Shown here: one piece after another, positions 17,689 through 21,924 of the stretch
How the letters are laid out: each line of letters opens with the position of its first letter
Numbering within the stretch: the stretch's first letter is position 1
Assembly (NCBI GenBank): GCA_000092065.1
Contig: CP000592.1
Reading direction: 5' to 3' (one strand)
Source: Ostreococcus lucimarinus
Taxonomy: Eukaryota
Length of the DNA: 64,000 nt
Program-made: the position numbers and the translations under genes
The notes under the pieces: model-generated
The model's input: only the letters and a program-made list of their open reading frames with translations
The model's database searches: none
What the model was told of the DNA's origin: nothing

Positions 17689-19140
17689 CTACGCGCGCGC
17701 GTGCTCGCGAGAGATGATTTCGTCGCCCGGGTCGTCAGGGTGGCGCGGCTTGAAGAAATCGTACACGCGCTTACTCTTCACCTCGCCGAATCTATTCTTC
17801 CCACCGACGATGTCTTTGAGCATGTTTTCTTTATCCGCGATCGACGTGCGCGGATCTTCGTAGGCCGACATGAGAGCGGCCATGGATTTGTACTCGCGAA
17901 CGATGCCGCGCGCGTGCGGGGCGGTGACGCCAGATATGCGCTGCAGCGCTCTGAGGAAGAAATCTTGCGAGGTTGGCTTTTTACTTTTTCCCGATGTTCC
18001 ATCCATGTAATCGTGTGATTTATCGAGAAGAAAGTCTTTCGATAGCGGTGGCTCGTGACGACGCCGGGCGATGGCGTCGTGGATCATGACGACGTGCTCG
18101 ACGCACTCGGCCATTCCCGGAAGCGCGACGAGGACTACGTCGGCGTATTGCACCACTATCTGTGCGACGCACATGTCGTACTCATCTCGCGACCAACCGG
18201 CGTTTGGATTATCATAGTCGCACCCTCGGCGCTCTTTGGAGGTGCAGAACTTATCCGGTGATTCGACGATGACGCACAGTTTATGTTCGCCGCCGCCGGT
18301 TTCTCGCTCAAACGTCTCCACCATCTTTCGCAAGCCCGCGGAATCGTTTTCGATGAGCTTTAAAAACGCGTCCCCACTCAGCAACACGGCGGTATATCGC
18401 GCGCTGTGCGCACCGACGTCGTCTGAGCGCACTGGAACGTCCGACACGGCGTGATACGTCCACGTAACGCTCCGCTCGAGAGGCAAATTTTCATACTCGT
18501 ACAAAATTTGCTTATCTCCAGCCTTGTGCCGGTTGTTGTCGAACCGCACGACGAGCGAGCGCCCGTACGCCGAATCATTTTTGAAGCTCTTCGCGTCCAA
18601 CGCGCACGTCACCTGACTGTACAATTGTTTCCTGCTATCCGGTTCCGGAAACGCCTTCGATTTCGTCGCGTCGGCGTTTCGATTCGAGCGCGACGGCGCG
18701 TTTCGCACCACCGTCGTCGCCGCGTCGAGTCGCGCGTCGTCGCGCGCACCGCGCGCCTCATCATCCACGCGTCGTCGAACGCGACGCGCCTCCACGTGCG
18801 TCGTCGTCGCGTCGATCACGCGTCGTTCCGCGCGTTTCGCCGCGACGTCCTCCTCCCTCTCCGCCGCGCCGTCGTCGCCGTCGCCGTCGCCGTCGTCGTC
18901 GTCGACGTCGTCGTCGTCCAACAGATCGATCACCTCGATCGCCGCGCGCGCGCGCGCGTCGCGCTCGACGAGCGTCTCTTGCGTCGATCGCAGCGCCGGT
19001 GCGAATTCGTCCTCGACGTCTTCGAACGCGTCGTCGTCGTCGGACGTCGTCGCGTCGCGCGTCGCGCTCGGCGCGCGCGCGATCGATTCGCGCGCCGTCA
19101 GAGACGGACTCAGAAGCCACGCGCGCGCGCTTCGAAGCAT
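17689..19140 (-). CDS. EME1/MMS4-like protein (ERCC4-like domain plus tandem helix-hairpin-helix); non-catalytic partner of MUS81
   Basis: The C-terminal FLRALQRISGVTAPHARGIVREYKSMAALMSAYED...ENMLKDIVGGKNRFGEVKSKRVYDFF parallels the EME1 (HhH)2 tail. A nuclease-like region precedes it but lacks the ERK catalytic triad. Confidence 0.5.
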   Translation of the reverse strand: MLRSARAWLLSPSLTARESIARAPSATRDATTSDDDDAFEDVEDEFAPALRSTQETLVERDARARAAIEVIDLLDDDDVDDDDGDGDGDDGAAEREEDVAAKRAERRVIDATTTHVEARRVRRRVDDEARGARDDARLDAATTVVRNAPSRSNRNADATKSKAFPEPDSRKQLYSQVTCALDAKSFKNDSAYGRSLVVRFDNNRHKAGDKQILYEYENLPLERSVTWTYHAVSDVPVRSDDVGAHSARYTAVLLSGDAFLKLIENDSAGLRKMVETFERETGGGEHKLCVIVESPDKFCTSKERRGCDYDNPNAGWSRDEYDMCVAQIVVQYADVVLVALPGMAECVEHVVMIHDAIARRRHEPPLSKDFLLDKSHDYMDGTSGKSKKPTSQDFFLRALQRISGVTAPHARGIVREYKSMAALMSAYEDPRTSIADKENMLKDIVGGKNRFGEVKSKRVYDFFKPRHPDDPGDEIISREHARA

Positions 19141-19354: not shown

Positions 19355-19389
<35 letters not shown>

Positions 19390-19446: not shown

Positions 19447-20916
19447 ATGGAGCGCGCGATGGAGACCGTGAAACTCGACGTCGCGACGCGCGCGTGGAAC
19501 GTCGACGGGAGCGCCGGCGCGCGCGCGGCGAGCGGGCTGTCGTGGATCGCGGAGGCAGAGCGCGTCACGGGACGACGACGGGGACGGTGCGCGTACGACG
19601 GATGCGACGAGGAGGCGGAGCACGGCGGACACGTCTGGATCGCGGGCGTGTCGACGCGAGGCGCCGACGCGAAGTGCGCGTTGGTGCCGATATGCGCAGA
19701 TTGTAATTGGCCGGGCAATACGCGACGGATGCAGAACGGGGGGTCGTATTTGCGCGCGGGCGTGGTGGCGACGGCGGTGGAGATGACTCCGGAGATGCTG
19801 AACGCGCGGCGACGGTTCGCGCGGGACGAAGGAGACGAGGACGACGGCGAGGACGAGGAAGACGGCGAGGACGAGGGAGACGTGAGGGTGTGTGTTTCGT
19901 GCGGCACAGACATCTCGGGTATGCCGGCGAACCACACGGTGTGTCTCGCGTGTTTTCGACGCGGATCGCTGAGCGGCGATGGTCGTTCGGATGCCCGTCC
20001 TTGTGTTTCGTGCGGCACAGACATCTCGGGTATGCCGGCGAACCACACGGTGTGTCTCGCGTGTTTTCGACGCGGATCGCTGAGCGGCGATGGTCGTTCG
20101 GATGCCCGTCCTTGTGTTTCGTGCGGCACAGACATCTCGGGTATGCCGGCGAACCACACGGTGTGTCTCGCGTGTTTTCGACGCGGATCGCTGAGCGGCG
20201 ATGGTCGTTCGGATGCCCGTCCTTGTGTTTCGTGCGGCACAGACATCTCGGGTATGCCGGCGAACCATACGGTGTGTCTCGCGTGTTTTCGACGCGGATC
20301 GCTGAGCGGCGATGGTCGTTCGGATGCCCGTCCTTGTGTTTCGTGCGGCACAGACATCTCGGGTATGCCGGCGAACCACACGGTGTGTCTCGCGTGTTTT
20401 CGACGCGGATCGCTGAGCGGCGATGGTCGTTCGGATGCTCGTCCTTGTGTTTCGTGCGGCACAGACATCTCGGGTAGGCCGGCGAACCACACGGTGTGTC
20501 TCGCGTGTTTTCGACGCGGGTCGCTGAGCGGCGATGGTCGTTCTGATGCCCGTCCTTGTGTTTCGTGCGGCACAGACATCTCGGGTATGCCGGCGAACCA
20601 CACGGTGTGTCTCGCGTGTTTTCGACGCGGATCGCTGAGCGGCGATGGTCGTTCGGATGCCCGTCCTTGTGTTTCGTGCGGCACAGACATCTCGGGTATG
20701 CCGGCGAACCACACGGTGTGTCTCGCGTGTTTTCGACGCGGATCGCTGAGCGGCGATGGTCGTTCGGATGCCCGTCCTTGTGTTTCGTGCGGCACAGACA
20801 TCTCGGGTATGCCGGCGAACCACACGGTGTGTTTCGCGTGTTTTCGACGCGGATCGTACGACAGCGAGTACGACAGCGAGTACGACAGCGAGTACGACAG
20901 CGAGTACGACAGCTAA
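19447..20916 (+). CDS. Tandem-repeat cysteine-rich protein with nine C-x2-C...C-x2-C zinc-ribbon-like modules
   Basis: Unique N-terminal Cys/His-rich domain (GRCAYDGCDEEAEHGGHVWIAG...CALVPICADCNWPGN). An acidic linker follows, then nine copies of the 37-aa unit PCVSCGTDISGMPANHTVCLACFRRGSLSGDGRSDAR, then (SEYD)x5 and a stop. Because the repeat is a multiple of three, all six frames are open across it. This frame is chosen for the contiguous ATG, the unique N-terminal domain and the clean stop. Confidence 0.6.
   Translation: MERAMETVKLDVATRAWNVDGSAGARAASGLSWIAEAERVTGRRRGRCAYDGCDEEAEHGGHVWIAGVSTRGADAKCALVPICADCNWPGNTRRMQNGGSYLRAGVVATAVEMTPEMLNARRRFARDEGDEDDGEDEEDGEDEGDVRVCVSCGTDISGMPANHTVCLACFRRGSLSGDGRSDARPCVSCGTDISGMPANHTVCLACFRRGSLSGDGRSDARPCVSCGTDISGMPANHTVCLACFRRGSLSGDGRSDARPCVSCGTDISGMPANHTVCLACFRRGSLSGDGRSDARPCVSCGTDISGMPANHTVCLACFRRGSLSGDGRSDARPCVSCGTDISGRPANHTVCLACFRRGSLSGDGRSDARPCVSCGTDISGMPANHTVCLACFRRGSLSGDGRSDARPCVSCGTDISGMPANHTVCLACFRRGSLSGDGRSDARPCVSCGTDISGMPANHTVCFACFRRGSYDSEYDSEYDSEYDSEYDS
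19891..20856. repeat. Tandem array of a 111-bp unit, about 8.7 copies, more than 97 percent identical
   Basis: Units start at 19891, 20002, 20113, 20224, 20335, 20446, 20557, 20668 and 20779. Only a few single-base differences distinguish copies. Confidence 0.9.
20857..20913. repeat. 12-bp microsatellite (tacgacagcgag)n encoding (SEYD)n at the C-terminus of the repeat protein
   Basis: About 4.75 tandem copies immediately precede the stop codon at 20914..20916. Confidence 0.85.
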
Positions 20917-21048
20917 CTGGCTACGTAGATCGGGATGGATGTAAATAACGCAACGGAATAATCGTTTCACGCGCGTCTCTTCGTTCTCTTTGCGGTGTTC
21001 GATTTACAACGTCTCGCGCGCGCGCGGCGGGCCGAGACGACGAGTAAG

Positions 21049-21924
21049 CTAACGTAAGCGTTCGAGCGCCCGGGCGGTCGTGGACTTCTTACTCGGCGAC
21101 GCGTTTTCGTCGGCTAAATCGAGCTTGCGTCGGGCGCCGCGCTTGCCACCTTCGTAACCGCCGCGCGAGCCCCATTCAACTTTACCGGCGTGATCTTCGT
21201 CGTCGTCCAGAACCGATCGCGCCACGCTACCGACGATGTTTGTCATCGTGCCCGGGGACATCATGAGCGACGTCGGCGCGCTGGGTGAGGCGAAACCGGC
21301 GGCGCCCACGAGCGGCGACTCGGCTTGACTCGCCTTGAACGGCGAACTAAATCCTAAAGCCTCCGCCGCCGCGTTGACGACGCGACCGACTATACCGATC
21401 GGCGGTGATGCCGGTACATCGGGTTCGACCACCTTGCGACGCTTCGCGGGCGACCTTGGACTCGTGGACGCGCGCTTCGGCGACTTTTTTGGCGACTTTT
21501 TCGGCGGCGACGTCTGCATTTGACTCGCCGTTTGCGTCGGCATGATTTCCTCGTCATCGTCGTCGTCGTCGTCGTCGAAAACAATCGTCGGTTTCTTCGT
21601 TTTACGCTCCAGCGCGAGTTTCTTCGCGTTAGGGCTCGCGAGTAGCAACGGTTTCACCCCCGGCGCCGGCACGTTTGAAAATTCGCCTTCCTGCGTCGCC
21701 TTTGCCGTCGCCGCCGTCACCAACTCATCCTCATCTTCGCTTTCGCTCTCCATCTCCAACGCGCGCTGATTTGCCATGTACTTCCCACGTCCAGGCGAGC
21801 TCGTCGTCGCGCGCATCGTTCGACTCGCGTTCGCCGCGCCGCCGTCTCGTCGCGGCGAACGCGCCTGCGATTCGCCGCCGCCGTAATCCTCGGGCGTGTC
21901 ATCGATCGGTGCGATTTTCTGCAT
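21049..21924 (-). CDS. Hypothetical low-complexity protein with SPKK-type motifs
   Basis: 291-aa ORF containing SPKKSPKKSPKR and acidic tracts. No recognisable domain. Coding status is uncertain. Confidence 0.35.
   Translation of the reverse strand: MQKIAPIDDTPEDYGGGESQARSPRRDGGAANASRTMRATTSSPGRGKYMANQRALEMESESEDEDELVTAATAKATQEGEFSNVPAPGVKPLLLASPNAKKLALERKTKKPTIVFDDDDDDDDEEIMPTQTASQMQTSPPKKSPKKSPKRASTSPRSPAKRRKVVEPDVPASPPIGIVGRVVNAAAEALGFSSPFKASQAESPLVGAAGFASPSAPTSLMMSPGTMTNIVGSVARSVLDDDEDHAGKVEWGSRGGYEGGKRGARRKLDLADENASPSKKSTTARALERLR

Follow-up and report, generated by a model that had tools for sequence, protein, structure and literature searches.

A near-identical array of nine predicted zinc modules in an Ostreococcus lucimarinus gene that belongs to a large undescribed protein family

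INTRODUCTION

Tandem arrays of zinc fingers are known from several proteins, among them the C2H2 fingers of PRDM9 and the RanBP2-type fingers of nucleoporins, in which fingers are arranged head to tail and the number and sequence of the units shift by unequal recombination. Here we describe a gene with a comparable arrangement in a 64,000-nucleotide stretch of Ostreococcus lucimarinus contig CP000592.1 (the window, to which all positions refer), located at 19447 to 20916 and coding for an N-terminal domain (the head) followed by nine four-cysteine (Cys4) modules. Few eukaryotic phytoplankton are more abundant than Ostreococcus and its relatives, which are also models of minimal eukaryotic genomes. 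The gene is an extreme variant within a large and undescribed family of modular zinc proteins, and the repeat expansion itself is of an ordinary kind. It differs from the PRDM9 and RanBP2 arrays in that its fingers are of the Cys4 type with an x13 spacing and its nine units are almost identical, and the array thus cannot read nine different sequence elements.

Other described systems share parts of this layout. GIY-YIG enzymes such as I-TevI, as well as ZRANB3 with its NZF finger and HNH domain, likewise carry small zinc modules, joined by flexible linkers, behind a compact head, although the head described here is neither GIY-YIG nor demonstrably HNH. The modules resemble Pfam DZR and generic Cys4 ribbons in having C-x2-C...C-x2-C units, with a summed score above the cut-off, but they have a DISDRP signature of their own, a second Cys pair that is placed on a helix in the structural model, and scores below the cut-off for one or two units. 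The head shares with the WRKY-GCM1 domains the spacing C-x4-C-x22-ligand pair and a Gly ahead of the second Cys, but its second pair is Cys-x2-Cys/His rather than the His-x-His of WRKY.

RESULTS AND DISCUSSION

The gene and its array of near-identical modules

The head, the 111-bp array, and a C-terminal SEYD repeat all lie within a single open reading frame (ORF) on the plus strand, and the translation is as initially annotated. The protein is 489 amino acids (aa) long from the ATG at 19447 and 485 aa from a second in-frame ATG at 19459, and the head residues are numbered from this second start (METV). The plus-strand frame is the only one conserved in homologues, at 40 to 55% identity, and the long ORFs on the opposite strand and in the other frames are by-products of the repeat in G+C-rich DNA. 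The gene has the following features:

19447 to 20916, plus strand: coding sequence of the zinc-module protein, from ATG at 19447 to TAA at 20914 to 20916, with translation and frame kept in homologues.
19459 to 19833, plus strand: conserved 125-aa head domain of an unnamed family, from family alignments and an AlphaFold2 model.
19588 to 19605 (codons 19588 to 19590 and 19603 to 19605), plus strand: first predicted zinc-ligand pair, C44-x4-C49, a putative role suggested by conservation in 112 members.
19630 to 19632, plus strand: His58 of GGHVW, which opens the first strand of the central beta-hairpin, from its invariance in alignments and the model.
19693 to 19707, plus strand: second predicted zinc-ligand pair, C79-x2-C82, followed by N83, from family alignments.
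19825 to 19881, plus strand: acidic Asp/Glu/Gly linker (DEGDEDDGEDEEDGEDEGD) joining head to array, from the translation and low model confidence.
19891 to 20856, plus strand: tandem array of the 111-bp unit with nine Cys4 modules (CVSCGTDISGMPANHTVCLACF) separated by the linker RRGSLSGDGRSDARP, from Tandem Repeats Finder and unit comparison.
20856 to 20913, plus strand: 12-bp microsatellite GTACGACAGCGA coding for (SEYD)n, 4.8 copies by Tandem Repeats Finder, polymorphic in copy number.
20909 to 20944, plus strand: C-terminal tail TANWLRRSGWM*, out of frame in the window and in frame in other O. lucimarinus alleles.

The array was first noted as a 111-bp unit repeated about 8.7 times with few substitutions, and Tandem Repeats Finder gives just this for 19891 to 20856 (period 111, 8.7 copies, 98% matches, no insertions or deletions, score 1890). 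Read in codon register, it consists of eight complete 37-codon units, each encoding C-x2-C-x13-C-x2-C, and a ninth that merges with the SEYD tail. Among the eight full units there are just five substitutions in 888 bp, four of them synonymous and one changing Met to Arg (20477, in unit 6), and units 1 to 3, 7, and 8 are identical. All five substitutions (20268, 20439, 20477, 20520, and 20544) are unit specific, and the identical stretches between them are shorter than 400 bp. The near-identity of the eight units bears out the proposal of a very recent amplification or homogenization, and it suggests that unequal recombination between the 111-bp units, or slippage during replication, enlarged or homogenized the array.

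The third codon positions of the repeat had been called T-rich and read as a hint of a young or unusual gene. The first part stands, as T occupies a fraction of 0.32 of the third positions in the unit (12 of 37, binomial P = 0.002), compared to 0.12 to 0.15 in six neighboring genes and 0.04 in the part of the gene that encodes the head. The second does not, since the family is old and large and the same bias is present in the modules of a paralogue, P0004 (contig L010, 7001 to 7765), from another G+C-rich picoeukaryote, in which third-position T is 0.28 in the module region, 0.13 in the head, and about 0.10 in the neighboring genes. The bias thus belongs to the module region rather than reflecting the age of the gene, and only the expansion is young, not the gene. 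We note that P0004 uses TGT codons for Cys in its module region, that its T-rich third positions are found in that region only, and that two of its three modules have identical cores (from C-x2-C to C-x2-C), with the related protein P0008 having one module fewer.

This is a genuine nuclear gene of O. lucimarinus. It is found together with its neighbors in nine marine metagenome contigs (L001 to L004, L011, L012, and L017 to L019), in which the syntenic genes code for bystin, MORN, EME1/MUS81-like, 291-aa, DNA polymerase delta subunit 2, and RBBP4-like proteins. Two neighboring proteins are identical to database entries of O. lucimarinus CCE9901 (XP_001420563.1 and XP_001420727.1), and the bystin-like protein clusters with A4S578 of the same strain. 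The exact zinc-module protein, from either start codon, was not found among 15 billion public protein sequences, and homology searches gave no match from an NCBI or UniRef annotation of O. lucimarinus, whereas three of its neighbors do have accessions there. Most likely, the reference annotation omits this gene or models it wrongly. No paralogues were found elsewhere in the window.

A large family in which the modules are mobile

Searches with the head plus one module matched 17 clusters, a head profile matched 126, and an exhaustive hidden Markov model (HMM) search of 1.84 billion representatives returned 2,043 matches at E ≤ 1e-3, of which 499 reach E ≤ 1e-10 and 106 reach E ≤ 1e-30, such that the family has no fewer than 499 members at the middle threshold; these counts are of clusters at 50% identity, and the weakest HMM matches may cover only the module part of the profile. 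The members are mostly 90 to 270 aa long, lack informative names, and come from metagenomes, MMETSP, and EukProt. They constitute a large and old family of marine picoeukaryotes, with hundreds of clusters that have no Pfam model, solved structure, or name, and literature searches found no description of the head-domain family. The genomic contexts are eukaryotic and mutually unrelated, including aldolase and SDR genes in L010 and genes for a CLC channel, DPH4, TGT, and a capping enzyme in L014; some members lie in ORFan-rich contigs.

Among 185,579 prokaryotic species genomes, the family is present on a single contig. This contig (L008/L016; PAOZ01000033.1, 58.5 kb, G+C fraction 0.36) is assigned to an archaeal metagenome-assembled genome, and the family member lies near polB, dCMP deaminase, sigma70-like, and LHC-like genes; it is probably misbinned eukaryotic or giant-virus DNA. 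The link to giant viruses that it suggested was dropped, as two IMG/VR scans and BFVD gave no relative.

Family members carry from zero to six modules, which are usually mutually diverged, and seven to eight members have CCHC knuckles in place of the modules. One member, P0238, joins the head to two OB folds of the RPA type (REPA_OB_2, E = 4.8e-16; OB anticodon type, E = 8e-9). A search with the array found two proteins, P0299 and P0298 (L015, 2514 to 3302), each with a GIY-YIG nuclease domain (33 bits, with a cut-off of 22.6), a CCHC knuckle, and then two DISDRP modules. The module is thus a mobile accessory common to two different types of head domain. No additional fusions turned up when ten more of the long members were scanned with Pfam. 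Other architectures include three tandem head cores in P0247 and a second, degenerate copy in P0186, and among P0247, P0257, P0262, and P0186 there are members that combine a possible UBA-like N terminus with a CCHC knuckle, a head in degenerate form, and five to six modules that have diverged.

The CCHC, GIY-YIG, and OB partners all act on nucleic acids, and conserved arginines are present, including R41, R90, R99, R118, and R119 in the head. For these reasons we favor the reading that the O. lucimarinus gene codes for a multivalent, modular nucleic-acid-binding protein in which the number of modules changes by unequal recombination. We regard this reading as evenly poised. The data show the gene, its family and architecture, the recent expansion, and the allelic hot spots; zinc binding, nucleic acid binding, and a role for module number are inferred, and the mechanism is drawn from the domain associations only.

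The head domain

All of the head motifs first picked out (C-x4-C, EHGGHVW, and C-x5-C-x2-C-N-W) are present in the translation. In 112 family members, C49, G56, G57, H58, P77, C79, and N83 are invariant, and W13, N14, G17, S18, T37, C44, A53, I78, C82, N87, R90, M113, R118, and R119 are at least 90% conserved, with C82 replaced by His in distant members. The window protein carries every invariant residue of the family pattern (W-N-V-D-G-S...T-G-R-x-R-G-x-C-x4-C-x3-A-E-x-G-G-H-V-W...A-P-I-C-x2-C-N...R-M-Q), and its homologues match at E values from 6e-40 to 3e-19. This conservation fits a putative Cys4 (or Cys3His) zinc site formed by C44, C49, C79, and C82. An AlphaFold2 model of the head, built with the family alignment, has a predicted local distance difference test (pLDDT) score of 89.9 and a predicted template modeling (pTM) score of 0.83, and contains, in order, an N-terminal hairpin, a helix, a central hairpin (55 to 62 and 71 to 78), and a short helix starting at C79. 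The modeled knuckle, beta-hairpin, and short helix around the Cys4 site would fit a treble-clef-like arrangement.

The architecture of the protein had been judged unfamiliar, and no described family fits the head. Neither the head nor distant members matched any Pfam, PHROG, or NCBIfam model. When PDB sequences were searched, both the single protein and the family profile brought up chance matches only (e.g., tau and C2H2 fingers), with no nuclease by profile, and Foldseek searches of the head model against PDB and BFVD returned nothing at E < 1. The initial annotation had offered an HNH-like or a treble-clef arrangement; the modeled Cys4 site agrees with the latter, but the former has no profile or fold match. 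The head is best described as an uncharacterized zinc domain with no recognizable relative.

One alternative is that the head is a divergent beta-beta-alpha-metal nuclease of the HNH/endonuclease VII type, acting as a selfish homing-type enzyme or in repair or defense, and targeted by the module array. An HNH core would have an invariant His in strand 1 and a metal-binding Asn/His on the helix; in the head, H58 and N83 are invariant and N87 is at least 90% conserved, but H58 is located at the start of a strand and the helix is only four residues long; Pfam scans of the head gave no HNH-type match at E ≤ 1, and Foldseek searches of PDB and BFVD found no structural match to a beta-beta-alpha HNH core. 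The head may be catalytic, and we consider the nuclease alternative unlikely. The order of the motifs agrees with endonuclease VII, and a direct comparison with the T4 enzyme using hhalign, for which the comparison sequence was entered by hand, paired ICxxCN with LCNLCN, but at 0.2% probability, which does not support the relationship.

A second alternative, which we rate as quite unlikely, is a lineage-specific transcription factor with a WRKY/GCM-like head, in which the acidic linker and the SEYD tail serve as activation regions. The typical family spacing, C-x4-C-x22-C-x2-C, resembles the C-x4-5-C-x22-23-H-x-H of WRKY with a Gly before the second Cys in both, RGRCSFEGC is paired with YYKCTTPGC by hhalign, the protein has long acidic stretches, and its variation is limited to the putative recognition surface. 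The WRKY assignment itself is not supported, with hhalign giving 4% probability against a small WRKY alignment (entered by hand) and no WRKY or GCM protein appearing among the fold matches.

The Cys4 module

From 219 units in 115 proteins we derived the module signature R-x-C-x2-C-G-x-D-I-S-D-R-P-x2-H-x2-C-L-x-C-[FYW], in which conservation is about 90% for each of Ile, Pro, and His and at least 90% for the Arg two residues ahead of the first Cys. In an AlphaFold model of the head with two modules, the modules have pLDDT values of about 90, the linkers between them 50 to 64, and the pTM is 0.56, which agrees with the picture first drawn of nine Cys4 modules as predicted beads on a string. The description as zinc ribbons holds for the Cys4 module and not for a strict ribbon; the modeled modules contain only short bridges and have helices (163 to 171 and 200 to 207) that begin at the second Cys pair, and Pfam DZR passes only when summed. 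The module therefore seems closer to a treble-clef mini-finger than to a zinc ribbon, if the model is correct. For DZR (PF12773; cut-off, 27.3 bits), the whole protein scores 56.6 bits from seven summed stretches, a fragment of two units reaches 23.5 bits, and a single unit 14.8 bits. The module profile had no significant match in PDB; there, and with single modules in Pfam, only weak and scattered Cys4 matches were seen. The RanBP2/NZF finger (W-x-C-x2-4-C-x3-N-x6-C-x2-C) was rejected as an identity for the module, which has no conserved Trp or Asn, an x13 spacing, and no zf-RanBP match.

Within one protein, mean unit identity is 0.48, compared to 0.36 between proteins, and 60 of 172 units have their best match in their own protein. 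Local duplication thus recurs in the family, and the nine near-identical units of the O. lucimarinus gene are the extreme case seen.

The modules could instead make protein-protein or ubiquitin-type contacts (NZF, RING-like, or ZZ), with the protein serving as a scaffold. Summed over the whole protein, matches to the Pfam models zf-RING_5, zf-RING_14, and ZZ_ADA2 come close to the respective cut-offs or exceed them, and an N-terminal stretch of P0257 is UBA-like by eye. However, single modules score only 14 to 20 bits against many unrelated Cys4 families, the spacing and signature are unlike those of NZF/RanBP2 fingers, and the associated CCHC, GIY-YIG, and OB domains suggest nucleic acids; we find a scaffold very unlikely.

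Allelic variation and the C-terminal tail

The protein was noted to end in SEYD repeats, and the 12-bp repeat does run up to the stop codon. Its copy number, which short reads resolve, is 4.8 in the window, 2.8 in L001, 5.6 in L019, and 5.9 in L018. In the window and in L001 to L004 the SEYD repeat is directly followed by the end of the ORF, whereas TANWLRRSGWM is in frame in L011, L012, L018, and L019 by means of differing 5-nucleotide insertions at the junction, of which there are three kinds. The tail motif W-L-R-x-[AS]-G ends the paralogues P0004, P0007, and P0008 and is near the C terminus of P0005; the tail is thus ancestral, and the allele of the reference strain is a truncated one.

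Variation in the head was compared over window positions 19576 to 19710 (residues 40 to 84) in L001 to L004, L011, and L012 and in proteins P0001 and P0018 to P0031. It is restricted to residues 40, 43, 51, 52, 81, and 84, all of which are beside the four Cys ligands, and some of the sites have three states, such as D/N/K at 81. The clustering next to the ligands has a permutation P of 1.5e-5 in a test that was picked post hoc, and at the DNA level the alleles differ by three nonsynonymous changes and one synonymous change. Diversifying selection may act on the surface around the zinc site, and since the variation is confined to positions beside the ligands, this is likely a specificity or interaction surface.

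The array unit itself is also polymorphic. Wild alleles have the same 111-bp unit except for G instead of T at unit position 32, which codes for Arg, the family consensus, rather than Met. The position is Arg in 67% of family units, and Met is present in eight of the nine modules of the reference strain (all but unit 6). The Met-bearing unit has thus spread to eight of the nine modules in this strain.

These observations could be taken to mean that the gene is decaying in the reference strain and that the array, as a coding minisatellite in a gene that the alga can spare, is expanding neutrally. A frameshift removes the conserved tail, eight modules have Met for the conserved Arg, and the exact protein is missing from public sets in which its neighbors are present. 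But the ORF is intact over 1,470 bp, the head is the same as in wild alleles outside the hot-spot residues, four of the five differences between units are synonymous, and the truncated-tail allele is common among wild contigs, such that decay is a very improbable account.

Only one or two units are seen in the metagenome contigs. The assemblies were made with k-mers of 119 to 141, longer than the 111-bp unit, and the near-perfect array collapses; the contigs are thus unusable for comparing module copy number between strains. That all metagenome assemblies show so few units might also be taken to mean that the nine-unit array is an assembly artefact, which is hardly credible, as k-mers exceeding the unit must collapse such a repeat, the unit-specific substitutions leave identical stretches of less than 400 bp that Sanger-length reads can presumably span, and the window matches published CCE9901 reference proteins.

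A model for function and its significance

If the protein is a multivalent nucleic-acid binder as we favor, it would act through four parts: a 125-aa head that a Cys4 zinc site holds together, with the invariant His58 and Asn83 next to it, an acidic linker, nine Cys4 mini-fingers that fold independently on flexible Ser/Gly/Arg linkers, and an acidic-aromatic (SEYD)n tail. The head would provide a specific contact surface around its zinc site, which is the only part of the head that varies between alleles, and the module array would add avidity or reach along DNA or RNA. The 111-bp units have multiplied or been homogenized very recently by unequal recombination or slippage, and the unit that spread has Met in place of the family Arg.

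Several points weigh against nucleic acid binding of this kind. There is no significant sequence or fold match that links the head or the modules to a characterized nucleic-acid binder. The OB-fold fusion is a single predicted protein and a possible gene-calling artefact, and the GIY-YIG association involves the modules and not the head. The reference allele may be partly disabled, with its tail frameshifted out and Met in eight of its nine modules, and strains cannot be compared for module count in short-read contigs.

A more far-reaching version is that the head is an undescribed zinc-dependent nucleic-acid-targeting fold, possibly a new nuclease, widespread in marine picoeukaryotes, with specificity residues around the zinc site under diversifying selection and with array and tail switching rapidly by slippage, such that this would be a contingency-type gene in conflicts between the alga and viruses or selfish elements. 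We consider this doubtful.

If the protein is a plain nucleic-acid binder, the outcome is one new domain family together with a striking but ordinary repeat expansion. A confidently modeled head with no fold match, associated with modules that are shared with GIY-YIG proteins, could represent an unrecognized class of DNA- or RNA-targeting proteins of the picoplankton. Three fast-changing features are combined in the one gene (the number of modules, the zinc-adjacent residues, and a tail switched by a 5-nucleotide insertion or deletion), and it is a convenient natural system for studying the evolution of coding minisatellites in a very compact eukaryotic genome.

Neighboring genes and other repeats

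The gene is divergently arranged with one coding for a structure-specific nuclease-like protein:

17689 to 19140, minus strand: EME1/MUS81-like protein, from Pfam EME1-MUS81_C and PDB Mus81; context only.

It had been described as an EME1-like partner about 300 bp away, and the gene start is 306 bp from the zinc-module gene. The similarity is weak, with Pfam EME1-MUS81_C matching at E = 7.2e-6 and 26.6 bits, just below the cut-off of 27.4, and PDB Mus81 at E = 2.8e-5 over residues 385 to 468. A meaning for the pairing does not hold up, because it is not conserved at the other family loci examined, where the neighbors are unrelated, and no functional link between the two genes can be drawn. The length of the EME1/MUS81-like protein varies from 482 to 536 aa in metagenome gene calls.

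Downstream of the zinc-module gene, a 291-aa ORF (21049 to 21924, minus strand) corresponds to XP_001420727.1/A4S582. It has no Pfam match, is kept in the species cluster, and codes for a Ser/Pro/Lys-rich protein with an acidic run.

Short repeats are also present in and around the two divergent genes. An 18-bp repeat lies at 19834 to 19882 in the acidic linker region of the zinc-module gene, as identified by Tandem Repeats Finder. A (CGT)n microsatellite of 11 copies (19356 to 19387) is inside the 306-bp divergent intergenic region, and another of 16 copies (18870 to 18918) is within the 5' portion of the EME1/MUS81-like coding sequence and specifies poly-Asp on the minus strand.

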